Shown one piece after another: positions 19,619-64,000 of a DNA stretch of 64,000 bases. The position numbers were made by a program, and so were the translations under genes. The notes below the pieces were generated by a model that worked only from the letters and a program-made list of their open reading frames with translations, was not told the origin of the DNA and made no database searches. Source of the stretch: an uncultured Bacilli bacterium (GTDB lineage: Bacteria > Bacillota_I > Bacilli_A > RF39 > UBA660); the NCBI GenBank assembly GCA_947626115.1, contig CANQQX010000003.1, positions 415-64,414 of the forward strand, written 5' to 3'. The stretch's first letter is position 1; each line of letters begins with the position of its first letter.

Positions 19619-19733
19619 CTTTCTCCTTTTTCTAAAAATAATATTTTGTACTGCATGTAAATCCATTATAAAAGATTATTTGACAAAAAGCCATAGGAAG
19701 TTTTGACAAGTTTTGTCAATTCGTGTAAAGTTA

Positions 19734-26788: not shown

Positions 26789-26858
26789 AATTCCTCCTAG
26801 AAAATATTATGATTATAAATAAAAAAATAGTACCAATGGCACTATTTAAATTACTATT

Positions 26859-27122: not shown

Positions 27123-27197
27123 ATACAATCACTCCTATTCTTGATTACTCACAAGCTACTTTAATTGTAAAACATTGGCAAGATTTTTTCAACTATT

Positions 27198-28180: not shown

Positions 28181-28212
28181 ACATATCACCAGTAAAGTAT
28201 ATGAAAATTTAA

Positions 28213-28237
28213 TTAAAAAAAGCACTTTTTAAGTGCT
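28213..28237 (-). terminator. rho-independent terminator ending the accessory operon
   Basis: On the minus strand: AGCACTT-AAA-AAGTGCT followed by TTTTTTTAATT, 14 nt after the anti-sigma stop. Confidence 0.65.
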
Positions 28238-29496: not shown

Positions 29497-29587
29497 TACG
29501 CACCACTTTGAAAGGCCTTTCAATATAATAACAAATAAGATTATTAAAATAACTCAAAAAAATAAAAAAGCAATTTACTTTTTTATT

Positions 29588-31798
29588 TTAAGGCAATTTT
29601 ATTTTAAATGCTGTATTAGGAGTTTTTCCGTCTCCACTTTCTATTATGACATCATCTCTCAATGTAATAGTTGGTTTTACGGCAAAATAATTGTCATATG
29701 TTTCTTGAAATATACCTTGGGTTTCTGTCTCAAATACTCCAATCATTGGGTAGTTACCATCACCATATGGAGTCATTGTAGCAGTCTTATAGTCGTGTGT
29801 ATCAGTTCCTCCTAATGGATATGCAAACAATTCACCAACAATTGGAAGTCCAACATATCCAGTCCAAGTATTCGTTGTTTTTTCACAGTCTTTAGTAGTT
29901 TCAGAAGTGTCTGTTTTTTTACATATCGTATTTTTATAACTACCAATCCTGCTTCCATCTTCAGGTTTAAGTTGAGCAGGATTTACATAATAAGTATCTT
30001 CAACCAAATATTTTTTTATACCTTGTTTTTCAAGTTTTTCAAGCCATTCATTATTTAAATACGATAGCCAATAATTATCATTATTTGACTTAACAATTCT
30101 ATCATATGTCTCACTTACACCAGCATCTACATCATATTTAAAATCCATACTACCAAATTGTTTTTTCATAACAGAACCATTATCATCTTTGATATAATTA
30201 GCACTTTTTAATTTAGTTACAAATTTTCCATCTTCATTTTTATGAATATTTACTATACGATATAACATATCATTAATCTGAACAAGTTCTCCTGGAGTTC
30301 TTGTATTTATTGGATCTCCAACTTCAGCTGCTTCTATATCATCTAATAAAACAAAGGGATTAGTTTGTGTTCCTTCACCACTAAATTTAACATCTTTCTT
30401 TAAAACCACCACAGGGCGAACTCCAAAAGCAGTATTTGGCACATCCCATCCTGCTATTCCTCCAAATTGATTAACTCCATTAACACCTGTATAAGGAGGA
30501 GGGGTCAAATTAAAATATGATGATAACCACCAACTATGTCCAAGATTTAAAAAACTACTGCTACCAAACAAAGCAGTCTTGTTAAATTCGTAAGGATTCA
30601 TTAAACCAACGGGAGCTTTTGTTGTATTAGGTGGCTTAATATAGCACCAATTATACCAAGGTGATATATCCCAAGTAGCATCTTCCACTAATATGTTTTC
30701 ATGATTATATAAAGTATCTAAAAAATCTTCATTTAACCATTGTTTTATATATGAGTTTTCAAAGAATCCATCTTCACCAAAATTTATAGCCGATAAAATA
30801 TTTTCGGTAATCATTTTAACTTTTCCATCATTTAATATTTCTGTTATTCTCCACATATAACCCGAATACCAAACATAATTAAAATTCAAACATTCATTAG
30901 TTCCCCAAAAATAGGTATGATAAGGTGGTGTATCATCAAACCCATTATCACCATTACAAGGTGAATCAGTTTGGGATATATTAAAGTATCCACCATTATA
31001 ATTACACATTTTACTATTAGCAATATCCATTATAAATTCACCTAATGTTTTATTTTGAATAATTACATCACCAGTAACATTTTCTATTTGTAAAACATTA
31101 CTTTCTAAAGTAAAATCAGTTACTTTTATATTACCTACATATACATTTAAATTATTTCTATTAATACTATTATCTAAAGTAACTTTTAAAGTATCACCAT
31201 CCATTATTTCTTTAGGATATTTACTTATATTTATATTAAATCCAGAATAAGTTATTTTATGGAATTCTCTAAAATCAATATTTAAATTTAAATTATAAGT
31301 ATCTTTATCACTTCTAAAACCATTCTCTTTATATTTTATAGTAATTTTTATTTCTTTTTTTATTCCTAAATTACATCTATCAACACCACATATTTTATCT
31401 TTTAATTTATAATCATCGATAACCATTTCTAAATTATCTGGTAAATTATCAATTTTTAATATACCCATATCAACATTACCATAATTAATTATTTCTACTA
31501 TAAATGATACAGTAGAACTTTCATTAGGTAAAGTTATATCAGCAAATACTTTGTTATGATCATAATCTTGGGATAATATAATACCACCATTTGTTATACC
31601 ATTACTTACAACAGACGTAACTCTTATATCTTTTTTAGCATTTACCCTTACTGATAAATCATTAACATATAATTTTTGTAAAAAAGCCGACCAACCAATA
31701 GTTAAAAATAATAAACAACAAAAAAGAATACTCAATATTAAATATTGATAATTTTTTCCTTTTTTATATCTTTTATTTATATTTGCTATTTTTTTCAT
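29588..31798 (-). CDS. large secreted protein with a TasA/TapA-type (SipW-dependent) signal, an N-terminal domain like the 221-aa protein, and two copies of the domain found in the 466-aa protein
   Basis: The signal ...LLFLTIGWSAFLQKLYV compares with TasA GGGTWAAFND. Repeats include MWRITEILNDGKV...HSWWLSS...GVRPVVVLKKDVKFSGEGTQTNP and MLYRIVNI...AVKPTITLRDDVIIESGDGKTPN. Confidence 0.75.
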   Translation of the reverse strand: MKKIANINKRYKKGKNYQYLILSILFCCLLFLTIGWSAFLQKLYVNDLSVRVNAKKDIRVTSVVSNGITNGGIILSQDYDHNKVFADITLPNESSTVSFIVEIINYGNVDMGILKIDNLPDNLEMVIDDYKLKDKICGVDRCNLGIKKEIKITIKYKENGFRSDKDTYNLNLNIDFREFHKITYSGFNINISKYPKEIMDGDTLKVTLDNSINRNNLNVYVGNIKVTDFTLESNVLQIENVTGDVIIQNKTLGEFIMDIANSKMCNYNGGYFNISQTDSPCNGDNGFDDTPPYHTYFWGTNECLNFNYVWYSGYMWRITEILNDGKVKMITENILSAINFGEDGFFENSYIKQWLNEDFLDTLYNHENILVEDATWDISPWYNWCYIKPPNTTKAPVGLMNPYEFNKTALFGSSSFLNLGHSWWLSSYFNLTPPPYTGVNGVNQFGGIAGWDVPNTAFGVRPVVVLKKDVKFSGEGTQTNPFVLLDDIEAAEVGDPINTRTPGELVQINDMLYRIVNIHKNEDGKFVTKLKSANYIKDDNGSVMKKQFGSMDFKYDVDAGVSETYDRIVKSNNDNYWLSYLNNEWLEKLEKQGIKKYLVEDTYYVNPAQLKPEDGSRIGSYKNTICKKTDTSETTKDCEKTTNTWTGYVGLPIVGELFAYPLGGTDTHDYKTATMTPYGDGNYPMIGVFETETQGIFQETYDNYFAVKPTITLRDDVIIESGDGKTPNTAFKIKLP

Positions 31799-31807
31799 TA
31801 TGCACCA

Positions 31808-32932
31808 TTAATTATTTACTTCCATATCACTAGCTTTTATTTGTAATAAGTAAACATCATTATCATTTTTTATATAAAAATAACACTTTTGATGCTTAAC
31901 AATATTGTAATACATTATAGGTAATTTTAAATTATCTCTTACATCTAGTAATTCATTAAATTTATCAATCTTAATAATACTACTATTTTTATAATCAATA
32001 CCAGTAGTAGTTTCGACAATTAAACGATCATATTCTTTTAATATTTTACTTAAAAATTTATCATATACACTTTTCTTTTTAAATACTAATGATACTAACT
32101 TAATAATTTTACTTATATAAATTGCAGATATAATAAATAATACTATTTCTAATATTAATATTTTATAATTAAAAATCATTTCTTTATCCGCGATTGCTTT
32201 TTTCATTAATGCTGTATCTTGACTATCAAATTTAATTTCAATGCTTCGTTCTGATAATGGAATTATTATTGAACTTTCTGTTTTATCATTAATATTTAAT
32301 TTATCATCTTTACTTTTTTTATCTACTTCTAAATAAACTTTTAAATAACTATTAGTTTCTACTCCATAAGAAGAATTAAAACTGCTAACTAAACTATTAT
32401 AATAATCATAATCTATATCAATACTTTCATTTATTGCTAAAGTATTAGTATTAACCATTTCTTTATTTTGGGTATCTAAAAGTACATATTTCTTAGTAAA
32501 ATAATTTGTACTACCAGTTGAATTAGATATAATTAAATCACCTAGAATTCGATAATCAAAATTAACATCAAATATTTCATCTATTTTAAATAAATAAGAG
32601 AAATCAATATCTATTTTATCAATTAAACTAGCAACATATATCATATTTTCACCTAAATATTCAGTATCATAGAATTCATTTGGTTTAACATATACTTTAT
32701 AATTTATTCCATTATTTTCGTTATAATTAACAACTTTTGATTCCGTATATTGAATAGTTTTAGTAGCAACATAGAGACATAAAGAAAAAGCCACAAGAAA
32801 AATAGCCATGTTAAAAATCATTCTAAATCTAAAGCTAAAATGGCGTCTGTATTTACTTTTTAATTTTAGTTTTTTCGTACTTTTATTAGATTGATTGTTC
32901 TCGGCTGATTTTAACTCTTCCTTTCCTTTCAT
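31808..32932 (-). CDS. bitopic membrane protein of unknown function (possibly DUF5305-like)
   Basis: 374 aa. A basic N-terminus is followed by a transmembrane segment (FNMAIFLVAFSLCLYVA), a loop of about 210 aa, a second transmembrane segment (ILILEIVLFIISAIYISKII) and a cytoplasmic tail of about 100 aa. It is tightly packed in the operon. Confidence 0.65.
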   Translation of the reverse strand: MKGKEELKSAENNQSNKSTKKLKLKSKYRRHFSFRFRMIFNMAIFLVAFSLCLYVATKTIQYTESKVVNYNENNGINYKVYVKPNEFYDTEYLGENMIYVASLIDKIDIDFSYLFKIDEIFDVNFDYRILGDLIISNSTGSTNYFTKKYVLLDTQNKEMVNTNTLAINESIDIDYDYYNSLVSSFNSSYGVETNSYLKVYLEVDKKSKDDKLNINDKTESSIIIPLSERSIEIKFDSQDTALMKKAIADKEMIFNYKILILEIVLFIISAIYISKIIKLVSLVFKKKSVYDKFLSKILKEYDRLIVETTTGIDYKNSSIIKIDKFNELLDVRDNLKLPIMYYNIVKHQKCYFYIKNDNDVYLLQIKASDMEVNN

Positions 32933-32955
32933 TCATTTTTGCCTCTCTTTATCTT

Positions 32956-34083
32956 TTACAACTCGTTTATTAAAACGGTTGGAATGCCAATATAAGGTAT
33001 TTTAATATTAACAATGCCAATTATATTATCTTTGGTAAGAACAAAATTATCTCTTTTTTCATTAGCGTCTCCCTTAGTATAAAAATAATAATCATTTAGT
33101 ACTTTTGCTTTTTCTACTAAACGATGGACTATTACTGTGCCATTATAATTAAACGCTATTACTTGTCCTTCTTTAAGACTATCATAATCATCATCAATTT
33201 TTTCAACTATTACAACATCACCTTTTCTAATAGCCGGAGTCATACTACCACTTGCAATAGCAACAGCTTGATAATGAAAATATCCTGATGTAAAATAAAC
33301 TAATAAAATGACTAATAAGGCCGGTACTATATAGGCTTCTAATCTTCTTTTCTTTTGCTTCCTTTCTACTTCTTCATCATGATCACTTTTTAAAAATAAA
33401 TAGACACGATAACAAAACAATACAGGTAATAATAATCTAATAATAGACATTATATATTGATTAGGATTAGGTACAATTGGAATTAAGTATAAATATAATT
33501 CTAATACTAATCTAAAAAGAATCATTGGTTTATATCCTACATTCATTCCTATATAAGATGCTACTATATTTGTACTAACGGCAGGTAAGACGGTTAATGA
33601 TAAAAATATAAAGGCATTATATACAGAATCGTGTAGGTTATAATATAAAGTTGTTGAAATGTCTATAAAGACAAAAAGCAAGGTCGTTGTAACAATTAAT
33701 AACCAGCTTCCTTCAGATTTACATAAAAATTGATATCTTAAAAATTCTTTAGTAATAATTAATAATATTATAGGTAGTATTATATTAATAAAATCTTTAA
33801 TATTATAATAATTATCAGTTCTAGCAAAACTTATTATTAATCCTGATAAATAGAATAAAAGAAAAAAGATTAATAGAAATATAATACAGTCAAAAATAAT
33901 ATCTTTTGTGTAACGATGTCGATCTTTCTCAAATCCGAAGAAAAACTTGAACATAACAACTATAATAAGTAAAAATATTAACATTAAATAATCACTTAAT
34001 ATACTTGAAACAAAACTATTTATACACAAAACAATGAAAATAATTGTTTCAAATGCTAACAAACGCTTATACCCACTTTTCAT
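32956..34083 (-). CDS. sipW: SipW/archaeal-type signal peptidase I fused to an N-terminal polytopic membrane domain of about 250 aa
   Basis: The C-terminal 120 aa contain ASGSMTPAIRKGDVVIV...VIVHRLV...TKGDAN (a Ser/His ER-type SPase signature). The preceding 250 aa form about 7-8 hydrophobic helices. Confidence 0.8.
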   Translation of the reverse strand: MKSGYKRLLAFETIIFIVLCINSFVSSILSDYLMLIFLLIIVVMFKFFFGFEKDRHRYTKDIIFDCIIFLLIFFLLFYLSGLIISFARTDNYYNIKDFINIILPIILLIITKEFLRYQFLCKSEGSWLLIVTTTLLFVFIDISTTLYYNLHDSVYNAFIFLSLTVLPAVSTNIVASYIGMNVGYKPMILFRLVLELYLYLIPIVPNPNQYIMSIIRLLLPVLFCYRVYLFLKSDHDEEVERKQKKRRLEAYIVPALLVILLVYFTSGYFHYQAVAIASGSMTPAIRKGDVVIVEKIDDDYDSLKEGQVIAFNYNGTVIVHRLVEKAKVLNDYYFYTKGDANEKRDNFVLTKDNIIGIVNIKIPYIGIPTVLINEL

Positions 34084-34110
34084 TCCTTTCCTCCTAAATA
34101 GTTTTGTGAA

Positions 34111-34139
34111 AATATATTAAAGATTAACTTTAATATATT
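34111..34139 (-). terminator. 12-bp perfect AT-rich hairpin just after the major-subunit gene, a possible attenuator or mRNA-stabilising element
   Basis: AATATATTAAAG-attaa-CTTTAATATATT. Only a short U tract follows it on the minus strand. Confidence 0.3.
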
Positions 34140-34150
34140 TATTTACTTAA

Positions 34151-34816
34151 TTATGCTCCTGCATTATCTTTAGAACTATAATTTAAAGTAATAGCACCAA
34201 CTGTAACAGAATAATCATTATCAGTTAATGTTGTTCCTTCACCCGCTTTAATAGATAATTTAACTGTTTTGCTTTCACCAGCAGCTAATTTCTTACCAGA
34301 TATTGAAGCTTGATCACCAGTATAATCAGCATCATCTACAGTAAGAGTAACAGTAATAGTTTTACAAGCTGTATTTATTAATTCTGTATTAGCTGTAGCC
34401 ATACCATCTCCGGTAGCAGCACAAGCTAAAGAATCATTGGCAAAATCAATACTTGTTAAATACGCATCCATTTCACCGTTATTTACGACATACCACTCAT
34501 AAGTGATTTCTTGATTATCTTTAGTAATTTTAGCATTAGCATTTACCATAGTAGTTGCTGTAATAGTAGCAGTACCAGCATTTGATTGTCCTGCTTCTTC
34601 ATTGGTAATAGTACCTGTAACAGTTTGTTGACCTTCTTCGATTTTAGATTCTGTATTAGAAAATTCTACATTAAATTTAGAAGAATCAGCTTTAACTTCA
34701 GCAGTTGGTGTAATAGTTAATTGAGCAGTGAAAGCAGCAAAACCTACTGATAAACCAACAACAGCGATTACTAAAGCAATTATAGCAATAACTTTTGAAT
34801 CTCTATTCTTTTCCAT
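34151..34816 (-). CDS. TasA-like secreted protein with a SipW-type signal peptide, the probable major fibre or matrix subunit
   Basis: 221 aa. The signal is IAIIALVIAVVGLSVGFAAFTAQL. The mature part is Thr/Ala/Gly-rich. The gene is visibly more GC-rich than its neighbours and has a strong RBS (GAAGGAGGTG). Confidence 0.75.
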   Translation of the reverse strand: MEKNRDSKVIAIIALVIAVVGLSVGFAAFTAQLTITPTAEVKADSSKFNVEFSNTESKIEEGQQTVTGTITNEEAGQSNAGTATITATTMVNANAKITKDNQEITYEWYVVNNGEMDAYLTSIDFANDSLACAATGDGMATANTELINTACKTITVTLTVDDADYTGDQASISGKKLAAGESKTVKLSIKAGEGTTLTDNDYSVTVGAITLNYSSKDNAGA

Positions 34817-34905
34817 TATTCTTTCACACCTCCTTCGTTTTATCTTCTAGCGTATAGGGAGAGTTTTACTTTCATATTAAAACTTACATACACTATTCTA
34901 AGTAT

Positions 34906-34934
34906 ATTATATAATACCCCCCCCGAAATTGCAA
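34906..34934 (-). promoter_or_regulatory. consensus sigma-A-type promoter with a G8 homopolymer inside the spacer
   Basis: On the minus strand: TTGCAA (34934-34929), the 17-nt spacer tttcGGGGGGGGtatta, then TATAAT (34911-34906). The G8 tract is C8 on the plus strand at 34917-34924. Confidence 0.7.
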
Positions 34935-34980
34935 ATGAACTTGCATTTTTTTGACGAATTGTGTAAAGAAAAAAAGAAGA

Positions 34981-35301
34981 TTACTCTTCTTCAATAACTT
35001 TTGTTAAATCAAAATTATATATTATTATATCTTCTTGTTCATATTTTATATAGGTATTACCTTCTTCAATTACATAATTAATTTTATCAAGTGGTAGAGA
35101 TAACTCTAGTAAATAATCTGGTTGAATTGCTATACCTCTTCCTCTTAAAATATTATTTTTATTAGCGTCATTAAAAAGTAAAATATTTTTATTAGTTATA
35201 ATCATTGCCAAATTATATTCTTTGTTATTAATATCTAATAAAACACTCCTATCTTCATAAATTGCTTTTTCTTTGTTTTTAGTAAAATCATAATTAAACA
35301 T
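34981..35301 (-). CDS. hypothetical small cytoplasmic protein (possibly a bacterial PH-like fold)
   Basis: 106-aa ORF 12 nt downstream of the 478-aa gene. The fold assignment is only an impression. Confidence 0.55.
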   Translation of the reverse strand: MFNYDFTKNKEKAIYEDRSVLLDINNKEYNLAMIITNKNILLFNDANKNNILRGRGIAIQPDYLLELSLPLDKINYVIEEGNTYIKYEQEDIIIYNFDLTKVIEEE

Positions 35302-35313
35302 AATATACCTCCT

Positions 35314-36747
35314 TTATCTTGTTATTCCATTTAAACTATTAACAAACAAATTAACAATTAATTTATCATCTACAAACTGTTTTTCAGTTATTGTATAATT
35401 TCGAATTGTATCTTTTATTGTTTGCAAACTATATTTTTTTAATAACATATCAATTTTATCTCTATCACCAAACCTGTTAGTAATGTATTCTGATTTGCCT
35501 TCAAATAATTTTACAAGAGCTCCTTTGGCTTGTTTAATATCATAAGCGTTTAACGTATTTTGAATAGCAGTTGTTACAATATCAATTATTTCTGCTGATG
35601 GGTCTTCATTAATAACAACTCTTTCCAAATCTTGGGTAACATCAATCATAACTCTATTTTTATTTAAAACACGATTAACATATTCATTAACCATTTCTTC
35701 AAAAAATACTGTATTATCAAGATTTCCATATATTTCTTTAGCCATAATATTTATTGCAACATTTACTGGTACATATTTCGCTAAACCTTCTCTTGTTCCT
35801 TCTTTTCTGGTAATACTTTCTATATTACCATTTAAATATTTTAAAAGTGCACCTTTGGCTTGACCGGGGTAATATTTTTCTGTTACTAATATAGCTTGAT
35901 TTAAATAAAATTTAGGATCAATAATTCTTTCTCGCCATTTACCATATTTATCTATTGATTTATTATGAGCATGAGTATAAAATTGAGATAATTCAAAATC
36001 TTTAGAAGTAGTTTGACTTAAAAGAGAATAAATATCTTTTAAATCTAAATCTTTTATTTCATGAATACAATTTTTTAAATAAATATTAAAAGATTCAACA
36101 TTTAAATCTTTTACTCTATTTTTGATTTTTAATATTTTAATAAAATTTGTAATTGCATTACATAATTCAAAATTAAAGGAAAATTTATTGTCCATAGTTA
36201 AACCAATACCATTATCACTAGCTAAAAAAGGATTAACAGTTAAAATATTTTCTCTTAAAAAGGCATTACTATGGACAAAATCACAAATTCTTTGGGCATC
36301 TTCTAAAGTATTTACTCTTATAACTAAATCATCATTACGTTCGAAAGTAGCAATTTTAGATTGATGAGTAATATTGTTACTTGCTAAAAATGTGAAAATT
36401 TGTTTACCGGCATCCACTATCTTATCTTTAGCAAAAGGAATATATAATTTAACTTCATTACCATTTAATTTACCATTAGCAAACATTAAAAAATCAAAAT
36501 TAGCTCTTTCATATACTCTTAAATTAGGAGTATGTGCAAAATAATCATAAAAATCAGCGAAGTTATCTTTTAAACTTATTATTTCAGTTGAAGATAAACC
36601 ATAATTTATTAGTAAAGAATAAACTAAATCACTAGTTATTTCTCTTTTTTTATTTTCTAAAGCTAATTTTTTAATAGTGTTTAAAAAATCTTGCATTCGC
36701 TCATAGTTAGTAACTGGTATCGTTTTCTTCCACAAATTCACTTTCAT
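35314..36747 (-). CDS. unknown 477-aa cytoplasmic protein with an internal duplicated helical module
   Basis: The ATG at 36747 follows GGAG; the track start at 36750 is a TTG. The repeats are YYPGQAKGALLKYLNGNIESITRKEG and YDIKQAKGALVKLFEGKSEYITNRFG. The N-terminal segment VKLYIPFAKDK...SKIATFERNDDLVIRV faintly recalls HopA1 / LanKC-N-type domains (from memory only). Confidence 0.65.
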   Translation of the reverse strand: MKVNLWKKTIPVTNYERMQDFLNTIKKLALENKKREITSDLVYSLLINYGLSSTEIISLKDNFADFYDYFAHTPNLRVYERANFDFLMFANGKLNGNEVKLYIPFAKDKIVDAGKQIFTFLASNNITHQSKIATFERNDDLVIRVNTLEDAQRICDFVHSNAFLRENILTVNPFLASDNGIGLTMDNKFSFNFELCNAITNFIKILKIKNRVKDLNVESFNIYLKNCIHEIKDLDLKDIYSLLSQTTSKDFELSQFYTHAHNKSIDKYGKWRERIIDPKFYLNQAILVTEKYYPGQAKGALLKYLNGNIESITRKEGTREGLAKYVPVNVAINIMAKEIYGNLDNTVFFEEMVNEYVNRVLNKNRVMIDVTQDLERVVINEDPSAEIIDIVTTAIQNTLNAYDIKQAKGALVKLFEGKSEYITNRFGDRDKIDMLLKKYSLQTIKDTIRNYTITEKQFVDDKLIVNLFVNSLNGITR

Positions 36748-36865
36748 CAATCTCCATTGTATTTTCTAAATCTAAATTATCCATATCATTTCTTTCAATT
36801 TCGGAATCACTAACTAAAGGTATTTCTACTTCTTCACCATCTATTATCCATTTTTCAGTTTTCAT
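36707..36865 (-). CDS. 52-aa strongly acidic micro-ORF overlapping the start of the 477-aa gene
   Basis: Not in the ORF track. An RBS (GAAGGG) lies 6 nt before the ATG at 36865. The product is MKTEKWIIDGEEVEIPLVSDSEIERNDMDNLDLENTMEIDESEFVEENDTSY. It overlaps the next gene by about 40 nt in another frame. Confidence 0.4.
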   Translation of the reverse strand: MKTEKWIIDGEEVEIPLVSDSEIERNDMDNLDLENTMEIDESEFVEENDTSY

Positions 36866-42683: not shown

Positions 42684-43193
42684 TTAAGCAACATCTAATT
42701 TTTGAATTATTAATCTTTGTGCAATTCTTGCATATTTTAAGTATTCATCTTTTTTATCTTTACTTAAAATGATTATTAGACCACTGCAATCTGATTGAGT
42801 TATTATAGGTAAAGCCACAAAGAAACAATTGTTATTAAAATCTGTTTCTATTCTTTCGCCAATATAACTTTCCCTATTATCAATTAATGACTTATATTTT
42901 TCATTTAATTTAAAATTTAATAAATCTTTTAAATTGTTACTAGCAGATACTACTTTTTCTCGATCACTAACTAATATTCCTACATTACAAACATCAAAAA
43001 TAATGTCACAAATATTTTGACCTAAATCTTTAATATTCTCAACTTGGGAATATTTTTTGATAATAATAGAATTATCGCTCGTATATATTTCTAAAGGTTC
43101 ACCATCTCTTATACCTAAATTATATCTTATCTCTTTTGGAACTACGATTCTACCTAATTCATCAATTCTTCTAGTAATTCCACTTTTACTCAT
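42684..43193 (-). CDS. spoVT: stage V sporulation regulator SpoVT (AbrB-type N-domain plus GAF-like C-domain)
   Basis: Translation GITRRIDELGRIVVPKEIRYNLGIRDGEPLEIY... plus a C-terminal domain of about 115 aa. Confidence 0.85.
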   Translation of the reverse strand: MSKSGITRRIDELGRIVVPKEIRYNLGIRDGEPLEIYTSDNSIIIKKYSQVENIKDLGQNICDIIFDVCNVGILVSDREKVVSASNNLKDLLNFKLNEKYKSLIDNRESYIGERIETDFNNNCFFVALPIITQSDCSGLIIILSKDKKDEYLKYARIAQRLIIQKLDVA

Positions 43194-49532: not shown

Positions 49533-49548
49533 TATTTCCCGGGAAATA
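49533..49548. promoter_or_regulatory. perfect Noc-binding-site (NBS) palindrome
   Basis: TATTTCCCGGGAAATA in the recR-bofA intergenic gap. Confidence 0.75.
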
Positions 49549-52521: not shown

Positions 52522-52536
52522 ATCACTATCTCCATT

Positions 52537-52613
52537 AAAAAAGCACACACAAACAGGGATCGATGTGGCTGCTGTCTTCCAACTCTGACCAGTTTACGAT
52601 ATATTTGTTGTGC
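52537..52613 (-). ncRNA. ffs: signal recognition particle RNA, minimal 4.5S-like form (about 71-77 nt)
   Basis: On the minus strand: GCACAACAAAUAUAUCGUAAACUGGUCAGAGUUGGAAGACAGCAGCCACAUCGAUCCCUGUUUGUGUGUGC followed by U6. The segment CUGGUCAGAGUUGGAAGACAGCAGCC aligns with E. coli domain IV (CAGGUCAGGUCCGGAAGGAAGCAGCC), including the GGAA tetraloop. The 5' and 3' ends pair. Confidence 0.85.
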
Positions 52614-52619
52614 AAGTTA

Positions 52620-52648
52620 ATATTATCATAAATCATCATTTAATGCAA
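52620..52648 (-). promoter_or_regulatory. promoter of the SRP RNA gene
   Basis: TTGCAT (52648-52643), a 17-nt spacer ending in TGA, then TAATAT (52625-52620). The predicted start is about 52613. Confidence 0.6.
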
Positions 52649-52650
52649 AA

Positions 52651-52666
52651 TATTTCCCGGGAAATA
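52651..52666. promoter_or_regulatory. perfect Noc-binding-site (NBS) palindrome
   Basis: TATTTCCCGGGAAATA, 7 bp from a parS site. Confidence 0.75.
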
Positions 52667-52673
52667 TTTTTAA

Positions 52674-52689
52674 TGTTTCACGTGAAACA
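52674..52689. promoter_or_regulatory. parS: perfect parS (ParB/Spo0J binding site)
   Basis: TGTTTCACGTGAAACA is the palindromic parS consensus. It lies about 10 kb from dnaA. Confidence 0.85.
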
Positions 52690-52863
52690 TTGATAATAAT
52701 TATTAAAAAATTATATAAATACAATCAATAGCAATTAATTATTAGATTTGTTTGTAATGATCTGTAAAATATAGAATTATATTTTTTATATTTATTAATT
52801 GTTTTTTTTAAAATAATTTTCATTTATATATTTTTTAAAATAGTTCATAAATCAAATTTCTAA

Positions 52864-52879
52864 TGTTTCACGTGAAACA
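52864..52879. promoter_or_regulatory. parS: perfect parS (ParB/Spo0J binding site)
   Basis: A second exact TGTTTCACGTGAAACA. Confidence 0.85.
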
Positions 52880-52895
52880 TTAGAAAACTAAAAAT

Positions 52896-52911
52896 TATTT
52901 CCCGGGAAATA
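52896..52911. promoter_or_regulatory. perfect Noc-binding-site (NBS) palindrome
   Basis: TATTTCCCGGGAAATA, 16 bp from the second parS and 19 bp after the gyrA stop. Confidence 0.75.
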
Positions 52912-52930
52912 ATTTAAAAGATGCTAATTA

Positions 52931-55450
52931 TTAATCAGCATCTTTATCATCATTTAAAGTTTCTTTATTTTGATTAGATTCAATAAAATTATCGTTTTCA
53001 TTAGATGATTTTTCATTTTCATTTGTTTCTTCTTCATTTTTATCAACAACACTGATAGTTGCCACTAATTGATTATCTCTCAATGAAATTAATCTTAAAC
53101 CTTGAGTGACTCTACCTAATATAGAAATTTGATCAACAGGAAGTTTAATAGTTATACCAGCATTTGTCATGATTACAACAGCTTTATCATCTTCAACAAC
53201 TTTAGCTGCAACTAAATTACCATTCTTTTCAGTAACATTTAGTGCAAGTACACCTTTACTACCACGTTTAGTTTGTCTAAAATCACAAACTTTTGTACGT
53301 TTGCCATAACCCTTCTCTGTTACTAATAAAATTATGGCATCATCGTTGACAACTTCACAACAAATACAAGATCCACCATCAAGATTAATACCTTTAACAC
53401 CTGTAGCTGTTCTACCCATACTTCTGATTTCGCTTTCAGCAAATTTAACCATTCGACCATGATCACTACCAAGTAAGATAATGTTTTCACCAGTTGTTTT
53501 CTTAACATCAATTAATTCATCATTTTCATTTAAATTAATACAAATTTTACCAGAAGTTCTTATATTTTCAAACTCAGTTAATAGTGTTTTCTTAACAATA
53601 CCTTTTCTTGTGGCAAATAATAAATATTTATGTTCATCATTTTTACTAATCTTAATAACAGAATTTATTTTTTCATCTTTTTCAATATTTAGTAAATTAA
53701 TAACTGGAATACCCTTTGATTGACGACTAAATTCTGGTATTTCATAACCTTTAATCCGATATACTTTACCTTTATTAGTAAAGAACATAATATAATCATG
53801 AGTTGATAAGTTAATTAAGTGTTCAACATAATCCTCATCATTAGTAGTAAGTCCTTTAACACCTACTCCACCACGATTTTGAACCCTAAATGTATCATTT
53901 GTTGTTCTCTTAATATAACCTTTATTTGTTAATACCACCATAACATCTTCTTCTGGTATTAAAGATTCATCTTCAATATATTCAATTGCAGTCATATCGA
54001 TTTTGGTACGACGATCAACAGCATATTTATCTTTAATTTCAAGAAGTTCATCACGAATAATACCTAAAATTTTCTCACGAGATGCTAAAATTGCTTTATA
54101 TTCTTCAATTTTTTGTAATAAATCTTTTAATTCTTCTTCAATCTTAGCTCTTTCTAGACCAGTTAAACGACGAAGTTTTAATTCTAAAATAGCATCCGCT
54201 TGAACATCTGTTAAGCCATATTTTTTCATTAAAGTTTCTTTTGCTATAATGTCTGTTTCAGATTCACGAATTATTTTAATAAAATCATCTAGATTATCTA
54301 GAGCAATTTTGTAACCTTCTAAGATATGTACCCTTTTTTCAGCCTTATCAAGATCATATCTAGTTCTTCTAATTATTACTTCTTCTTGATAATTTATATA
54401 TTTAGAAATAATATCTTTTAATCCTAAAGTTCTTGGAACTTTATTATCAATCATTAAGAAAATGATACCATAACTTGTTTGAAATTGCGTATGTTTATAT
54501 AAATTGTTAAGTACTACTTGTGGATTTGCTTCTTTTTTCAAAGTAATTGTTATTTTCAAACCATCTTTTAAATCTAGATGATAATCAGCAATGCCATCAA
54601 TTATTTTGTTATGAACAAGTTCAGCAACTTTATCTTTTAATTCAGTAAGATTAACACCATATGGTACTTCATCAATAATGATATAATTTTTACCATTTTT
54701 TTCTTCAATAGTGGCTTTACTACGAATAGTTATCGTACCTCTTCCAGTTTCATAAGCCTTTTTTATACCACTATTACCTAGAATAATACCTCCAGTTGGA
54801 AAATCTGGACCTTTAATATATTGCATTAAACCAGCAGTATCAATCTCTGGATTATCAATATAAGCTACACATCCATCAATTACCTCACCTAGGTTATGTG
54901 GGGGAATATTAGTAGCCATACCAACGGCAATACCCATCGTTCCACTAACTAGAATATTTGGAAATCTTGAAGGAAGTACTTCTGGTTCTTTTTCAGTTTC
55001 GTCAAAGTTTGGTAAGAAATTTACCGTATCTTTGTTAATATCTCTAAGTAACTCTAAAGAAATTTTAGCAAGCCTTGCTTCAGTATAACGAGATGCTGCT
55101 GGGGTTGGAATTGAGATGTTACCAAAGTTTCCATGACCATCAACAAGTGTATGCGTAAAGTTAAAATCTTGGGCAAGTCTTACCATCGCATCATAGATAC
55201 TTGAATCACCATGAGGGTGATATTTTCCCATTACATCACCAACAATACGAGCTGATTTACGATGTAATTTATCTGGCGTATATCCTGATTCAAACATTGA
55301 CCATAAAATACGACGATGTACTGGTTTTAGGCCATCTCGTAAATCTGGTACCGCTCTTGATGTAATAACGCTTACTGAATAATCAATAAAAGATTTTTTT
55401 ATTTCTGGTACAATGTTATTTTCAATTATTTTATCTTTTTCTTGATTCAT
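52931..55450 (-). CDS. gyrA: DNA gyrase subunit A
   Basis: Translation contains [11 protein letters not shown]...[15 protein letters not shown]. The C-terminal tail is polar and acidic. Confidence 0.97.
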
Positions 55451-58566: not shown

Positions 58567-59013
58567 TTAAACAAAATTTGTTAAATTTCGGGCTTTTATT
58601 GTATTATTTAACTTCAAATTATTTAGTAACAATTTTTCAAAACTATATTTTGATAATTTAGTATAAAATATTTGCTTATTATTACAGTTTATTTTGAGTA
58701 AATTAGCCTGTTCTTCATAATCTATAACTTTATTTGCCACAATTAACAAAGTATTATTATTTCTAATTGAATTAAGTGGTAACAAGGTAATACTTTCATT
58801 AATAACTATTGGAACACGATATTTAACATTTAAAATATGTTGACTACTTTTAATTCTGCCACTTAAAGTACTACCATAAAAATTACAATTATTGTTAAGA
58901 ATAGTTTTAATATTTTTGTTAATAACTCTTATTTTATCAACATCATAAATAATAGTTTTCTTATCTAATTTTCTTAAGGCAACTGTTTTTTCAGTAATTA
59001 TATAGTTATTCAT
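58567..59013 (-). CDS. ComK-family protein (short, 148 aa)
   Basis: NNCNFYGSTLSGRIKSSQHILNVKYRVPIVINESITLLPLNS...YSFEKL aligns by eye with B. subtilis ComK (SCRFFGSSYAGRKAGTYEVTKISHKPPIMV...FPTLS...NSFENQ). Confidence 0.6.
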   Translation of the reverse strand: MNNYIITEKTVALRKLDKKTIIYDVDKIRVINKNIKTILNNNCNFYGSTLSGRIKSSQHILNVKYRVPIVINESITLLPLNSIRNNNTLLIVANKVIDYEEQANLLKINCNNKQIFYTKLSKYSFEKLLLNNLKLNNTIKARNLTNFV

Positions 59014-59076: not shown

Positions 59077-59092
59077 TATTTCCCGGGAAATA
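59077..59092. promoter_or_regulatory. perfect Noc-binding-site (NBS) palindrome
   Basis: TATTTCCCGGGAAATA in the gap between family member 4 and the ComK-like gene. Confidence 0.75.
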
Positions 59093-59096
59093 TTTT

Positions 59097-59843
59097 TTAT
59101 CTACTTTTACCTTGTTCTAATGCTTTATTAACTCTAAATTCTTCTTCAAAGTTAGTAATAAATTTTATCATTTCTGGAGTAAGACCTATATTTAATAATG
59201 CTTGAATATAATTTTCTATATCTATATTATTTAATTCATCTGTTATAAACAAATTATTTTTTTCTATTAAATTAATTACTCTATATAATATATTAGCAGG
59301 TATCATATCTAGATTTTTTTTAGAAATATAGCCACTATTATACAAAAAGCATAAGTTTTCATAAGAAATTAATTTAGCATATCTATCTTTATCTCTATCT
59401 AAAAATTCTTGATAATCTTTTTTAACACTATCAACTGTTTTTTTATAATAATCTAACATTTGTAATTCTTGATAAATTGCACTTACTAATTCTTTAGTAG
59501 TACAATGAAATTCAATAATTATTTTTTTACCACCATCTTTAAAATTAACAGTATCAGATTCTTTTATATTTCCTAAATTATAACTTGTTAAAAAATTACT
59601 AATATACGGATAAATTTCATCATAACGATAAGTATTAAAATTAAAATAATCATTCTCTTTGGTATTTTTAAATTTATAATAGTAAGAATTCCAATGATTT
59701 ATTAATTCTTCTAAAAATCTTTTATATTCACATCTTTCTATTAAATAATTAGTATCATATTTTTCAATTTTTAATAATTCAAAATTATAAGAAGAAGCAT
59801 TTTTTACATTATGTATTTCTTCGTTTAAATTATTTTTAGACAT
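59097..59843 (-). CDS. unknown cytoplasmic protein, divergent member 4 of the YY-x-ELQR family with a C-terminal extension of about 100 aa
   Basis: Translation contains YDEIYPYISNFL...LVSAIYQELQMLDYYKK. The ATG at 59843 follows AAGGAAGGGA; the longer track ORF overlaps dnaN. Confidence 0.6.
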   Translation of the reverse strand: MSKNNLNEEIHNVKNASSYNFELLKIEKYDTNYLIERCEYKRFLEELINHWNSYYYKFKNTKENDYFNFNTYRYDEIYPYISNFLTSYNLGNIKESDTVNFKDGGKKIIIEFHCTTKELVSAIYQELQMLDYYKKTVDSVKKDYQEFLDRDKDRYAKLISYENLCFLYNSGYISKKNLDMIPANILYRVINLIEKNNLFITDELNNIDIENYIQALLNIGLTPEMIKFITNFEEEFRVNKALEQGKSR

Positions 59844-59865
59844 TTTACCAAAACTCCCTTCCTTT

Positions 59866-60984
59866 TTAATATGTTTTAACAGGTAAAATAAGTTCAATTA
59901 ATGATTCATCTTTGACTGATTTTATTAAAATTGGTTTATCATCACTATTAATTAATAACAATATATTATCGTCTTTAATAACTTTTAAAGCTTCAAGCAT
60001 ATAACGAGATGAGAATGATATTTCTAATTTTTCTTTATTACTACATTCAATAGCTAAATTTTCTTCAGTTTTACCTATTTCACTTGCACTTGATGTAATA
60101 GTCATTTTTTTACTATCAATAACTACTCTAACAATATTTTTATCTTTACTTTGAGCAAGTAAAGAAGCTCTATCAATGGCATCATTAAATGCTTTTAAAT
60201 CTAGATTAATCATATATGCAAATTCATTAGGTATAAAATGATTTGTATCAGGATAAGTACCACTTAATAAATTTGTTTGAAAATCTATATTATGATATTT
60301 AAATAATATTTTGTTACTAAATATATGCATAACAACATCATCTTCAGTTGTTAACATTTTTTCAAACTCACTAATACTTTTACCAGGGATAACTATATTA
60401 ATTGTACTATTAACAATGTTATCAAGTTTTAAATTTTTCTTAGCAAGTCTATATGAATCTGTTGCAATACATTCTAGATTATCTCCTAATATCTTTAAAT
60501 TAATACCAGTAAGTAATGGTCTTACTTCTTGCGTAGATACTGCATATACTGTTTCATTAATTATATCTTTTAATGTTTCAGCTTTAATTGTTATAGGTTC
60601 TTTACTATCTTCTAAAGTAATATGTGGATAATCATTAATATCATAACAATTTAAACTATATTCATTATTATCAGTATATATTTTTATTTTACTAGTATCT
60701 TCTGCTTCAAAAGTTATAATATCTGATGGCATTTTTCTTATAATATCTAAGATAAATTTACTTTGAATTATCATACTACCAGTATTCTCTATCTTTTTAA
60801 TATCTTTTTCATTAATAAATACTTTAATAGTAAGTTCTGAATCACTAGCAAGTAAACTTAATCCTTCATTAGTAAGATCAAATTTAATTCCATTAAGAAT
60901 AGGTATAGTCGTTCTTGTTCCTATTGCTCTAGTAACATTAGTTAACCCTTCTAATATAATATTCTTATCAATAACAAATTTCAT
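59866..60984 (-). CDS. dnaN: DNA polymerase III subunit beta (sliding clamp)
   Basis: 372 aa starting MKFVIDKNIILEGL..., downstream of dnaA. Confidence 0.96.
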   Translation of the reverse strand: MKFVIDKNIILEGLTNVTRAIGTRTTIPILNGIKFDLTNEGLSLLASDSELTIKVFINEKDIKKIENTGSMIIQSKFILDIIRKMPSDIITFEAEDTSKIKIYTDNNEYSLNCYDINDYPHITLEDSKEPITIKAETLKDIINETVYAVSTQEVRPLLTGINLKILGDNLECIATDSYRLAKKNLKLDNIVNSTINIVIPGKSISEFEKMLTTEDDVVMHIFSNKILFKYHNIDFQTNLLSGTYPDTNHFIPNEFAYMINLDLKAFNDAIDRASLLAQSKDKNIVRVVIDSKKMTITSSASEIGKTEENLAIECSNKEKLEISFSSRYMLEALKVIKDDNILLLINSDDKPILIKSVKDESLIELILPVKTY

Positions 60985-61114: not shown

Positions 61115-62482
61115 TTATAACTTAGCCTTTATTTCTTTTAACATATTTTCAAGATTAGGATTATTCTTTAATTCTTTTTTAATCTTTTCACAACTAGCAA
61201 TAACTGTTGAGTGATCTTTACCACCAAATTCAAATCCTATTTTAACTAAATTTTCATCAGTTTCCATTCGACATAGATACATAGCAATTTGTCTTGGTTT
61301 AGCAATGTTATTACTTCTCTTTTTACTTTTTAAATCTTCCACGGTTATTTTAAAGAAATCCGCTACCACATTTTGAATATGTGATATTGTGTTTTCTTGA
61401 TAGATATTAACATTTATCGAATCTTTTAAAGCCTCAATGGCAAAATCTAAATCAATCACTTTTGGCATCATCATTGCGGTATAAGCAAGTAGTCTATTAA
61501 TTGTTCCAATTATATGTCGAACATCATTTGGACATCCATTGGCAATATATTCAATAACATCTCTATTTATCTTATCTTTAATACTGGAGTTATTTAGTCT
61601 TTGTTCAATAATTTCACACCTTAGTTCAAAATCAGGTGGATAAATATCAACTGGAAGTCCCCAAGCAAACCTACTTCTGAGTCTTTCTTCTATCTTCTTT
61701 AAATCATCTGGACTTCGATCACTAGATATTATTATCTGTTTATTTTTTTGATATAAAGCTTCAAAGGTATAGAAGAATTCTTGTTGCGTTAGTTCCGATC
61801 CTACTAAAAACTGTATATCATCTATTATTAATACATCAACATTTCGATATTTATTTTTAAAATTTTTAGCATATTCTAAGGCTTCTTTACCTTTTTCTAA
61901 TTTTGAAATATCAACATATTCATCACGAAAATCACTACTTGTTGTATATAAAACCTTTTTATCAGAGTTTTGGGTAATGTAATTGCCTATCGCATGCATT
62001 AAATGTGTTTTACCTATACCACTTCTCCCATATATAAATAAAGGATTTCTAATAGTCCCTGGTGATTGAGCTACATTCATCGCTGATATAAATGCAAGTC
62101 TATTTGATTCACCAACTATATAATTATCAAAGTTTAAATTAGGATTTAGATTAGTATGCCATTCGACTATTTTCTCTTCTGGCTTTTCTTCTTTAGGTGT
62201 AACTTCTTCATTTATTTTAGTATTTAAATCATTTAATTCATCTTCTGTTAATAACTTAAATTCATAATTCTTACCAGTTAAAGAAAAAATTGCATCATCT
62301 AATATATCCATATAAGAATTTGTTATAATTTGTTTATGAACTGGAAGAGGTACTTTAATAACTATTTCATTATCATCAATACTAACAAGTTTTAAATCAT
62401 TGAACCAAACAGAGAATGTTCCAGGACTAACTTGATTAGCTATTTCTTGCAAAAAATTTTGAAACAGTTCTTGTGTTTTCAT
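61115..62482 (-). CDS. dnaA: chromosomal replication initiator protein DnaA
   Basis: Translation contains NPLFIYGRSGIGKTHLMHAIGN...IIDDIQFL...KPRQIAMYLCR...GGKDHSTV. The ATG at 62482 is preferred. Confidence 0.97.
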   Translation of the reverse strand: MKTQELFQNFLQEIANQVSPGTFSVWFNDLKLVSIDDNEIVIKVPLPVHKQIITNSYMDILDDAIFSLTGKNYEFKLLTEDELNDLNTKINEEVTPKEEKPEEKIVEWHTNLNPNLNFDNYIVGESNRLAFISAMNVAQSPGTIRNPLFIYGRSGIGKTHLMHAIGNYITQNSDKKVLYTTSSDFRDEYVDISKLEKGKEALEYAKNFKNKYRNVDVLIIDDIQFLVGSELTQQEFFYTFEALYQKNKQIIISSDRSPDDLKKIEERLRSRFAWGLPVDIYPPDFELRCEIIEQRLNNSSIKDKINRDVIEYIANGCPNDVRHIIGTINRLLAYTAMMMPKVIDLDFAIEALKDSINVNIYQENTISHIQNVVADFFKITVEDLKSKKRSNNIAKPRQIAMYLCRMETDENLVKIGFEFGGKDHSTVIASCEKIKKELKNNPNLENMLKEIKAKL

Positions 62483-62500
62483 TACCTCACCCACCTTCAT

Positions 62501-62830
62501 ATATATCCCAATTTCATTTTAACTTAAATGCATTTTTAATACAAGAATAAAATTTATTAACATTAGTTATTAACATTTTATTCACATTATTTTGCTAGGT
62601 AAAATCTATAATAAAATAAGTTATTAACATTTTCAACATTTTTTTATTAACTTTTTAACATAAATAAATGTTAATAACTTTAAAGTAATTGTTAATAATG
62701 TTGATAAATATAAAAATGTTAAGAAATTAAAATAAAAAGTTAATAACATTTTTATTAACATTTAATGTTATTAATATTGATTTTTTCATTATTTGTGATA
62801 AGATAAGTAACAATTTATTTAAGGGGGACT
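62501..62830. other. oriC: oriC upstream cluster of variant DnaA boxes
   Basis: Exact TTATTAACA occurs at 62554, 62567, 62621 and 62752, and its complement TGTTAATAA at 62669 and 62690. TTATTCACA is at 62578 and TGTTGATAA at 62699. Several one-mismatch copies also occur. Confidence 0.8.
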
Positions 62831-62836
62831 ATGGGT

Positions 62837-64000
62837 ATGAATAGTGATTTAAAAATAATAAAAAAGAAATATGGGGAAAAAATGATGCATTTTTGTCGTG
62901 AATTTTTTCCCACATTACTTGAAAAAGAAGGATTATTATCTAGTTTATTATTAAATAATTTTAATGCCAGTCACAATTTATATAATGATTTAGTTGAATA
63001 TAACTTATTAGGTGATTTTAAAGAATATATTTATAGTTTAGTAGATGTGGAGCATTTAGAAGAAAAATCAGAAAATATTGCTTCACCTGAAGAATTACTC
63101 GCATCAGTTGGCTATGATTTATATGAATGTCATACCGAAGAAGAAATTCAAAGTTTTAGAAAATATTATGCTCCTGAAGAAGTATTATGTACATTTACTT
63201 ATGGTAATAGACTGGATACGTGTCGAGTATTCTTTGCGATAAAGAAAAATGTTGAAGAAATTAAAAGAGAAGATTTTAAACATCCCAAAAGACAAGATGA
63301 ATATGGTACATCAGTAATAAGTATTCAATTTGAAAAATTAGGTGGAAATAGATTATCAATAAAGAATAGGTATAATCATCATGTAAATAATCCCGATAGT
63401 ACATTTTCAAATAATTTAGATAACATAGTACCAGGATTAACAAAATCATTTGAAAAATACTATGGAATAAAACAACAACATATTAATAAAGGTTTTGAAA
63501 TACCATCATATACAATAGCAAGTGATGGTAAATATTATAAATATAATTATGAAATAGATAATGTGTATTACTGTCCAGATAATATAATAATAATAAATGG
63601 AATGGCAGGAAAACTTCCAAAAGAAAAATGTTTATTATTTGATTATTTTGTAATAGATTTTGGAACAAAAAAAATAACATCATTAACTAATGATGGATTT
63701 ATAGATAGTATAGGTACAATAGAGAAAATCGAAGTATTAAATTGTGATTTACTTAAAAAAGTGATTTTATATCAAGAAGATGGCATTTTAATAACCATTA
63801 TTTTAGATAGAGAAAATAATATAATTGGCTTAGATAATCCATATGTTAAAGAAGTAGCAGATGATTTTTTATATTATAATAAAAAATGTCAAAATATAAG
63901 ATTAAAAAATGTTACTTTTATTGGAAATTATTTTATGTATAATAATGAAAGTATTAAAGAAATATATTTTGAAAATGTTACACAAATTGGAGAATGTTTT
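62837..64000 (+). CDS. large hypothetical protein whose C-terminal part resembles BspA-type leucine-rich repeats; 3' end outside the window
   Basis: Not in the ORF track. The frame is open from the ATG at 62837 (RBS AAGGGGGA) to the window end, 388 codons: MNSDLKIIKKKYGEKMMHFCREFF...KNVTFIGNYFMYNNESIKEIYFENVTQIGECF. There is no signal peptide. Confidence 0.7.
   Translation, partial: MNSDLKIIKKKYGEKMMHFCREFFPTLLEKEGLLSSLLLNNFNASHNLYNDLVEYNLLGDFKEYIYSLVDVEHLEEKSENIASPEELLASVGYDLYECHTEEEIQSFRKYYAPEEVLCTFTYGNRLDTCRVFFAIKKNVEEIKREDFKHPKRQDEYGTSVISIQFEKLGGNRLSIKNRYNHHVNNPDSTFSNNLDNIVPGLTKSFEKYYGIKQQHINKGFEIPSYTIASDGKYYKYNYEIDNVYYCPDNIIIINGMAGKLPKEKCLLFDYFVIDFGTKKITSLTNDGFIDSIGTIEKIEVLNCDLLKKVILYQEDGILITIILDRENNIIGLDNPYVKEVADDFLYYNKKCQNIRLKNVTFIGNYFMYNNESIKEIYFENVTQIGECF

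Follow-up and report, generated by a model that had tools for sequence, protein, structure and literature searches.

Interleaved parS and Noc-type binding sites between gyrA and ffs in uncultured gut Bacilli: a candidate composite origin-proximal centromere

Introduction

The gap between gyrA and ffs, the gene of the signal recognition particle (SRP) RNA, in a 64,000-nucleotide stretch of DNA from an uncultured Bacilli bacterium (GenBank contig CANQQX010000003.1, positions 415 to 64,414; hereafter, the window, with positions counted from its first letter) contains two kinds of perfect 16-bp palindromes side by side, namely, two copies of parS, the site of the chromosome segregation protein ParB, and two copies of the Noc-binding site (NBS). 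Here, we describe these four sites, their recurrence in related genomes, and a Noc-type paralog of ParB encoded by the relatives, and consider the gap as a candidate composite centromere.

The textbook example of two paralogous clamps dependent on cytidine triphosphate (CTP) is provided by ParB and Noc, and their sites are viewed as separate sets, parS serving segregation and the loading of the SMC (structural maintenance of chromosomes) complex, and NBS serving nucleoid occlusion. To our knowledge, no physical link between ParB and Noc has been described. The two proteins act together genetically in B. subtilis (PMC6852036), and both clamps have been demonstrated to load and slide in a CTP-dependent manner (PMC8429893, PMC7053999).

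Results

Four perfect sites in the gyrA–ffs gap

The gap is bounded on the right by gyrA (52931–55450, minus strand), which also anchors the cluster syntenically in 103 related loci, and on the left by the SRP RNA gene ffs (52528–52624, minus strand; Rfam RF00169, 53.1 bits, E=9e-9). It contains, from left to right, the left NBS (52651–52666), a perfect palindrome TATTTCCCGGGAAATA; the left parS (52674–52689), a perfect TGTTTCACGTGAAACA; a 174-bp spacer with 10% G+C (52690–52863); the right parS (52864–52879), again a perfect TGTTTCACGTGAAACA, sitting within a 30-bp perfect palindrome (52857–52886); and the right NBS (52896–52911), a perfect TATTTCCCGGGAAATA located 19 bp from the gyrA stop codon. 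The gaps separating the four 16-mers are, in order, 7, 174, and 16 bp. The inverted repeat formed by the two halves is limited to the sites themselves, the flanks being unmatched. Neither the length nor the sequence of the spacer is conserved in relatives, and it has no Rfam match, hence a small gene or RNA in this position was rejected.

Both 16-mers are identical to the parS and NBS sequences that Jalal et al. 2020 (PMC7383237) worked with: the two perfect parS copies conform to the 16-bp palindrome TGTTNCACGTGAAACA, and the palindrome ATTTCCCGGGAAAT, which defines NBS, occurs in the window in four perfect copies. With the base composition taken into account (26.6% GC), chance alone would yield 1.6e-5 perfect copies of each 16-mer per 64 kb. 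If up to three mismatches are allowed, shuffled sequences yield 0.22 parS and 0.29 NBS matches, and parS in the window is still represented by the two gap copies only. The gap thus holds the only parS found within approximately 60 kb of the replication origin oriC. Two of the four perfect NBS are dispersed, one of them (49533–49548) lying 2 bp past the recR stop codon, and the other (59077–59092), 4 bp past the stop codon of the open reading frame (ORF) 59097–59897. All four CCCGGG hexamers found in the window are inside perfect NBS.

The reference for "origin-proximal" is the oriC cluster of DnaA boxes upstream of dnaA (61115–62500, minus strand), where about 200 bp (62554–62760) contain six exact TTATTAACA boxes; the parS copies are approximately 9.7 kb from it. 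On the ffs side, the left NBS adjoins a sigma-70-like promoter of the SRP RNA (52622–52649, minus strand; TTTGCA, 16 nt, GATAAT; consensus match only), whose -35-like hexamer (52649–52644) is 1 nt away, and on the gyrA side, a terminator-like hairpin with a T-tract (52917–52945, minus strand) overlaps the gyrA stop codon. A preliminary description, made from the letters of the window alone, had placed four perfect 16-mers at these positions and with these gaps, had identified them as parS and NBS, and had located them between the gyrA stop codon and the SRP RNA promoter, about 10 kb from the origin; all of this was reproduced.

Recurrence at one syntenic locus

A pattern scan over one genome per species (ATTTCCCGGGAAAT, 2–32 bp, GTTNCACGTGNAAC) yielded at least 120 stretches. 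Nearly all of the listed ones come from AT-rich metagenome-assembled genomes (MAGs) of uncultured gut Bacilli, labelled Bacilli bacterium, Clostridium sp. CAG:710, CAG:1000, CAG:417, Tenericutes, or Mollicutes. MAGs of this lineage also are labelled Mycoplasma, and the Bacilli-type locus is seen, in addition, on contigs of MAGs labelled Muribaculaceae or Bacteroides helcogenes (loci L008, L009, L016, L030, L037, and others), which probably reflects binning or labelling errors.

The pairing of parS with NBS, whose recurrence had been left by the preliminary description to a wider search, is found in the same gap between gyrA and tadA/ffs in 117 out of 120 listed stretches, at GyrA identity of 53–86% (tblastn with the window proteins). 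The gap size among relatives ranges from 165 to 3623 bp. For 82 loci with a complete gap, the median cluster comprises two NBS and three parS, with maxima of eight NBS and nine parS, and given the recurrence of such clusters, the window cassette, with its two sites of each type, belongs to a family of composite clusters and is small among them. Many clusters are regular alternating tandem arrays, e.g., 8.8 copies of a 75-bp unit in L076 and 8.1 copies of an 82-bp unit in L012. Both site types also are present in L121, a relative not ascertained by the pattern, where the order is gyrA, N-P-P-P-n-P-N, ffs (N, NBS; P, parS; lower case, one mismatch).

The mirror-image layout emphasized in the preliminary description did not hold as a conserved feature. 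The N-P...P-N order is confined to the nearest subclade: an NBS always is the gyrA-side site in the window and in the seven relatives closest to it, and also is the ffs-side site in all but L041 (strings NPPN, NPPNPPN, NPPPPN, and similar). Elsewhere, P-N-P or long alternating arrays are observed. When cluster edges are compared over 78 loci, NBS comes first in 35 and last in 29, approximately as the site composition predicts. The layout of parS, 6–7 bp, NBS, and promoter is common to the window, L086, and L010.

Several clusters have features of their own. In L041 (2202–3420), which lacks the ffs-side NBS, the cluster is split by a transposase-like ORF that has a copy of an approximately 130-bp repeat on each side. 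In L113 (1095–2222) and L087 (3485–4143), each NBS is within a longer repeated unit, TATTTCCCGGGAAATA-(a/t)TTgGTTTACATAATA, which suggests an additional conserved element beside NBS.

Two discrete site classes, closely paired

In the eight closest genomes, the 16-mers stay perfect, and the spacers vary in both length and sequence. The same is seen within tandem arrays (75- and 82-bp units, 8–9 copies, about 92% identical), where divergence from the unit consensus affects 2.3% of site positions and 5.6% of spacer positions (Fisher p=3e-5). Among 16-mers of the frame T-N-TTTC-N-CG-N-GAAA-N-A in 959 kb of related loci, 320 are pure NBS, 256 are pure parS, and 10 are other, with no hybrid between a parS half and an NBS half. 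Two classes as discrete as these fit two readers with strict specificity; indeed, exquisite discrimination of their sites by ParB and Noc has been reported (PMC7383237), as well as their orthogonality in vivo (PMC11109969).

With the ascertaining pair of each locus dropped, the median gap between neighboring sites is 47 bp for unlike sites and 115 bp for like sites (Mann–Whitney p=1e-11), and 378 unlike-site adjacencies are observed vs. 276 expected upon shuffling. The edge-to-edge gaps between adjacent parS and NBS in L001–L124 peak at 9–11, 19–21, and 29–32 bp, that is, approximately 26, 36, and 46 bp from center to center. With a periodicity of 10–11 bp, the two dimers would sit on opposite sides of the helix; the pattern is no more than suggestive, given that the genomes are kin and the arrays duplicate their own units. 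Short-range pairing and alternation of the two conserved, discrete site classes extend over more than 100 species.

Outside the clusters, the two site types are distributed differently. Only two out of 299 perfect parS cores of the relatives lie outside a cluster, and 720 kb of DNA outside the clusters contain these two parS vs. 41 NBS, or about one NBS per 18 kb. At least 38 of the NBS dispersed in the origin-proximal DNA of the relatives are inside ORFs. In L002, L009, L029, L052, L094, and L107, an NBS recurs about 1.6–1.8 kb from the cluster, falling within the dnaX coding region in both loci checked (L002 and L009), and thus some dispersed positions seem to be conserved as well.

A Noc-type ParB paralog beside rsmG

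A ParB-family gene directly follows rsmG (gidB) in L121/L162, L163, L164, L166, L167, and L123. In five of these relatives, including the two closest ones with both oriC flanks sampled, it encodes a Noc-type paralog. L121 (DnaA identity 75%, GyrA identity 83%), found in a metagenome scan with DnaA, spans both sides of oriC, and on the far side it contains rpmH, rnpA, yidC, jag, mnmE, mnmG, and rsmG, followed by the ParB-family gene (L121:2465–3505, minus strand; 346 amino acids). The cluster and the Noc-type gene are on one contig in L121/L162 and in L163/L010 (the latter being CANQYF010000002.1). The preliminary description had named the lack of a Noc ortholog as an observation that would speak against its proposal; instead, relatives carry an rsmG-linked paralog with Noc-type residues and the cluster on the same contig.

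Four positions (173, 179, 184, and 201 in the numbering of Caulobacter ParB) determine the specificity, being RTAG in ParB and QKKR in Noc (PMC7383237). In all 120 closest homologs of the clade protein, these positions are Q-K-[S/T/A/N/Q]-R, lysine never occurring at 184, and in the wider family, the best 150 representatives nearly all have Q-K-x-R. According to Jalal et al., lysine at either 179 or 184 alone is enough for function, and the QKAR/QKxR-type variants are among those preferring NBS (PMC7383237). The best matches among solved structures are Noc, at 197 bits, followed by Spo0J at 177 bits. On the NCBIfam model TIGR04285 (nucleoid_noc), the clade protein scores 276–279 bits, below the cut-off of 315, and canonical ParBs score 237–254. 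The Pfam domains ParB_N and HTH_ParB are matched, CTP-binding-type motifs IIAGERRYKAAK (GERR box) and VENVQRRDL (ENxQR box) are present, and the N-terminal, DNA-binding, and C-terminal domains are all confident in the AlphaFold model.

The N-terminus is different. In all 120 homologs, only 6–10 residues precede the conserved IPNRFQPR, and residue 4–5 of the query aligns with residue 26–27 of the full-length Noc chains 7nfu and 7ol9; the first 22–25 residues of Noc, and with them the N-terminal amphipathic membrane helix, thus have no counterpart in the clade protein. An upstream extension would not fit in L121, where the stop-to-stop ORF opens nine codons before the start codon, directly past rsmG. 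Membrane tethering as in B. subtilis, considered in the preliminary description, is doubtful because the clade protein has no such helix, which in B. subtilis is required for nucleoid occlusion (PMC8429893).

Another feature is the linker motif [IM]PNKFFN[FY]LEDE, near-invariant in all 120 homologs and often followed by EEIELLDF, in a linker that is otherwise variable. In the AlphaFold model, PNKFFN[FY]LEDE is a short helix in disordered sequence. It loosely resembles the C-terminal peptide of FtsZ (DIPxFL) and the N-terminal helix of Noc (FSRFFGL), and could represent a docking or membrane motif that has been relocated.

In L123, representing a distant lineage (DnaA identity 59%), the rsmG-linked paralog (2540–3502, minus strand) reads L-K-N-R. 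In 22 kb of sampled DNA of the L123/L124 lineage, no NBS was found, whereas gyrA is still followed by parS. On very little data, this agrees with residue 173 and the site type changing together.

Search for other ParB-family genes

The window and all loci were searched by tblastn with B. subtilis Spo0J and Noc sequences. Besides the Noc-type genes of L121 and L123, ParB-family matches were obtained only in L137, an unrelated locus with 46% GC, and in L117, which belongs to Acidaminococcales, outside the clade. A hidden Markov model (HMM) built from the 120 Noc-type homologs and applied to ORFs of at least 60 amino acids in the same DNA added nothing to this set. In the five relatives, the Noc-type gene is preceded by rsmG and followed, directly or after one or two small ORFs, by a penicillin-binding protein (PBP) gene and then by prfA; no ParA gene or second ParB_N gene was seen around it. 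In a HMMER search of the Noc-type protein against 1.84 billion representatives, none of the best 150 had the R...G residues of canonical ParB.

Genes around the origin

On the minus strand, the gene order away from oriC is dnaA, dnaN, a ComK-like ORF, recF, gyrB, gyrA, the cluster, the SRP RNA, tadA, dnaX, ybaB, recR, and holB, and this origin-region synteny resembles that of B. subtilis. The ORF of the ComK family (58567–59013, minus strand), located between dnaN and recF, retains its position in L162, L163, L164, and L166. At 62500–64000, the window has a large plus-strand ORF starting at 62837 and without a Pfam match, where five relatives have rpmH-rnpA-yidC directly after oriC, which suggests that the left flank of oriC in the window has received an insertion or has been rearranged.

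Spo0A, YabG, YabP, SpoVG, and SpoVT are encoded in the window (18851–19666, 27410–28225, 26498–27128, 42684–43193), and relatives add SpoIIR; together, these genes indicate a sporulation program in the lineage. Further away, at 28251–36750 on the minus strand, seven ORFs in a row (257, 169, 736, 374, 375, 221, and 478 amino acids) have no Pfam match at E<=1e-12, nor does a 106-residue ORF within the same run (E<=1e-6).

Discussion

A composite centromere as the favored reading

We lean, with somewhat more confidence than doubt, towards the reading of the gyrA–ffs gap as a composite origin-proximal centromere, where sites of a second ParB-family protein have been interleaved with parS and kept by selection, and where two predicted CTP clamps are loaded together. 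By analogy with the established biochemistry of ParB and Noc, the sites would be bound, and the clamps would load and slide with CTP, as follows. Canonical ParB would nucleate on the two parS, and the Noc-type paralog, of the Q-K-x-R type and encoded beside rsmG across oriC, on the two NBS located 7 and 16 bp away. Each clamp would then close with CTP and slide outwards, and a mixed domain of ParB and the Noc-type protein would be seeded from one place. The segregating centromere, responsible for SMC loading and origin segregation, would thereby be physically coupled to the signal of the Noc-type protein, which has dispersed sites like a nucleoid-occlusion factor and whose PNKFFN[FY]LEDE peptide we take as a docking motif. 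We infer a functional coupling of the centromere to the Noc-type function, and overall the pattern looks like a selected link between the latter and chromosome segregation.

A more far-reaching version appears rather unlikely to us. In it, ParB and a helix-less paralog derived from Noc are co-loaded from paired, helically phased sites into one mixed complex, with the linker peptide docking the centromere to a division or polar factor, and thus the Noc lineage has been re-used as a kinetochore-like adaptor and not as a membrane-tethering occlusion factor.

Several observations weigh against a two-clamp centromere. No ParB-family ORF was found in the 64-kb window by tblastn or by the HMM, which concerns both clamps; the Noc-type gene is not in the window, where the DNA left of oriC is unlike that of the relatives, with an unannotated ORF replacing rpmH. 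Canonical ParB (R173...G201) was found neither in the window, nor in 163 other loci, nor in about 10 kb beyond the Noc-type gene in L162, L163, L164, L166, and L167, all of which cover a small part of any relative's genome. The usual noc-soj-spo0J arrangement is absent in the five relatives, the place of soj-spo0J being held by the PBP gene. As the ParB gene was not found in the sampled DNA, the "two clamps" rest, for ParB, on its DNA sites, and we infer a separate ParB from the perfectly conserved, discrete parS class. Further, the related loci were ascertained by a pattern demanding a close parS–NBS pair, the genomes are MAGs and, being kin, non-independent samples, and tandem duplication alone inflates both the alternation and the spacing peaks. 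Two relatives outside the ascertained set have parS only, namely, L122, with two copies on a contig that ends about 150 bp past them, and L124.

Alternative explanations

The position of NBS in the nearest subclade could point to a boundary, with Noc-type dimers on the outer NBS confining sliding ParB to the gap or keeping the spread of ParB away from the gyrA terminator and the ffs promoter. A DNA-bound protein can stop ParB spreading unidirectionally (PMC7053999), the left NBS of the window adjoins the -35 element of ffs, and the outer sites of the window and its seven closest relatives are NBS on the gyrA side in each case and on the ffs side in all but L041. However, a Noc clamp slides off its site with CTP and thus would make a poor static barrier (PMC8429893), many clusters are P-N-P or long alternating arrays, and the edges of the 78 loci follow the site composition. 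The pure boundary model is weakened since NBS are not enriched at cluster edges clade-wide, and NBS as a general border of the ParB zone was rejected for the same reason; we consider a boundary role improbable. Passive co-location is to be doubted to a similar degree. According to it, the gap is a safe harbor of non-coding, origin-proximal DNA in a compact genome, and NBS arose there from duplicated parS by four substitutions, with no interplay between the two. It would account for the large and variable gap (165 to 3623 bp), for the evidently frequent tandem duplication in it, and for the parS-only L124, and the two sites indeed differ at just two positions per half-site (PMC7383237). On the other hand, NBS are tolerated in genes and other gaps and hence are not tied to the harbor, and the spacing shows a periodicity of about 10–11 bp; moreover, this explanation is weakened because unlike sites are much closer to each other than like sites, alternate beyond chance, and are not linked by mutational intermediates.

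The missing ParB gene, the PBP gene at the ancestral soj-spo0J position, and the lack of the R...G type among the best 150 family representatives would agree with loss of canonical ParB, parS being read by the Noc-type protein with dual specificity or by an unrelated factor. Still, only a small fraction of the genomes was sampled, and an orphan parB, with no partner parA, is also retained in S. aureus. All parS-specific variants have R173, and variants of dual specificity mostly have T or S, not R, at 201 (PMC7383237). A single dual-specific reader is unlikely because the clade protein has Q173 and R201, and because hybrid sites, which a relaxed reader would tolerate, are absent; altogether, we give loss of ParB little credence. 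Even less probable is a transcriptional role, in which the palindromes are gyrA terminators or operator- or UP-like elements of the SRP RNA promoter. The palindrome of the right parS does score as a terminator-like hairpin on the minus strand, the window, L086, and L010 each have an NBS adjoining the -35 element, and the two dispersed NBS of the window are 2–4 bp past stop codons; but gyrA has its own hairpin and T-tract, arrays of up to nine and eight sites are senseless as terminators, many NBS are intragenic, and the exact 16-mers are ParB and Noc sites, not generic GC-rich stems. The terminator-only reading was rejected on account of the separate terminator, the arrays, and the intragenic sites. 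Finally, the symmetric layout in the window had led the preliminary description to consider a miniature inverted-repeat transposable element (MITE). This or another selfish inverted repeat is extremely improbable and was rejected, given the single fixed syntenic position across 117 loci, the halves that are alike only through the sites and have no common flanks, the unequal spacers (7 vs. 16 bp), the lack of a target-site duplication, and the non-conserved internal sequence.

Meaning and novelty

The composite centromere would mean that two clamps meet on DNA, as suggested by the selected short-range interleaving in more than 100 species. Native substrates, from the 260-bp cassette with two sites of each type to alternating arrays with nine repeats, would be suited to studies of collision, roadblocking, cooperative loading, and mixed condensates of two clamps. 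In a large Noc-type family, the membrane helix by which the current mechanism is defined has been lost, and another conserved peptide has been acquired. In addition, the chromosome centromere would become marked in an abundant group of uncultured gut bacteria.

Full-text literature searches returned papers on ParB and Noc; none of those found dealt with either protein in this clade or described parS and NBS that are juxtaposed or interleaved, in agreement with the preliminary description, to which paired sites of this kind were not known. The elements are known; apparent novelties are their arrangement, its conservation, and a Noc-type family that is without the helix and carries a new conserved peptide.

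Comparison with known systems

Compared with the ParB(Spo0J)–parS systems of B. subtilis and other Firmicutes, the clade has the same 16-bp palindrome TGTTNCACGTGAAACA in few, origin-proximal copies, and the roles likely are the same, that is, loading of CTP-dependent sliding clamps and of SMC. Unlike these systems, all parS found here are in one intergenic gap, in one to nine copies interleaved with the sites of a paralog, and neither parB nor soj occupies the usual place beside noc.

Noc sites elsewhere are many, scattered over the chromosome, and absent near the terminus. With the Noc–NBS systems of B. subtilis and S. aureus, the clade shares the NBS 16-mer, sites dispersed both in and between genes, a cognate gene directly after rsmG, matching Q173, K179, and R201, and Noc as the closest solved structures. 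It differs in that the protein is without both α1, the N-terminal amphipathic membrane helix, and α2, has S/T/A/N and not K at position 184, scores below the NCBIfam cut-off for Noc, and contains the long disordered linker with PNKFFN[FY]LEDE. Further, the concentration of NBS inside the centromere is not reported for the model species.

In sporulating B. subtilis, RacA–ram and RefZ–RBM provide examples of extra DNA-binding proteins that use origin-proximal site clusters to position the origin relative to the pole or the septum, and the lineage of the window also has sporulation genes. However, these families and motifs are unrelated to the ones considered here, their sites are not interleaved with parS, and nothing in the present data ties the clade cluster to sporulation.

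The plasmid centromere sopC of F consists of 12 tandem repeats of 43 bp, and such centromeres, like the clade clusters, are head-to-tail arrays of ParB-family sites, the clade units being 60–140 bp long. Natural plasmid arrays have one site type and one protein, whereas the clade arrays alternate two types and are chromosomal. In the engineered 8xparS and 8xNBS arrays (mParSpot), ParB/parS and Noc/NBS are orthogonal in one cell (PMC11109969). There, the two site types are held at separate loci, whereas the clade array mixes both in one place.

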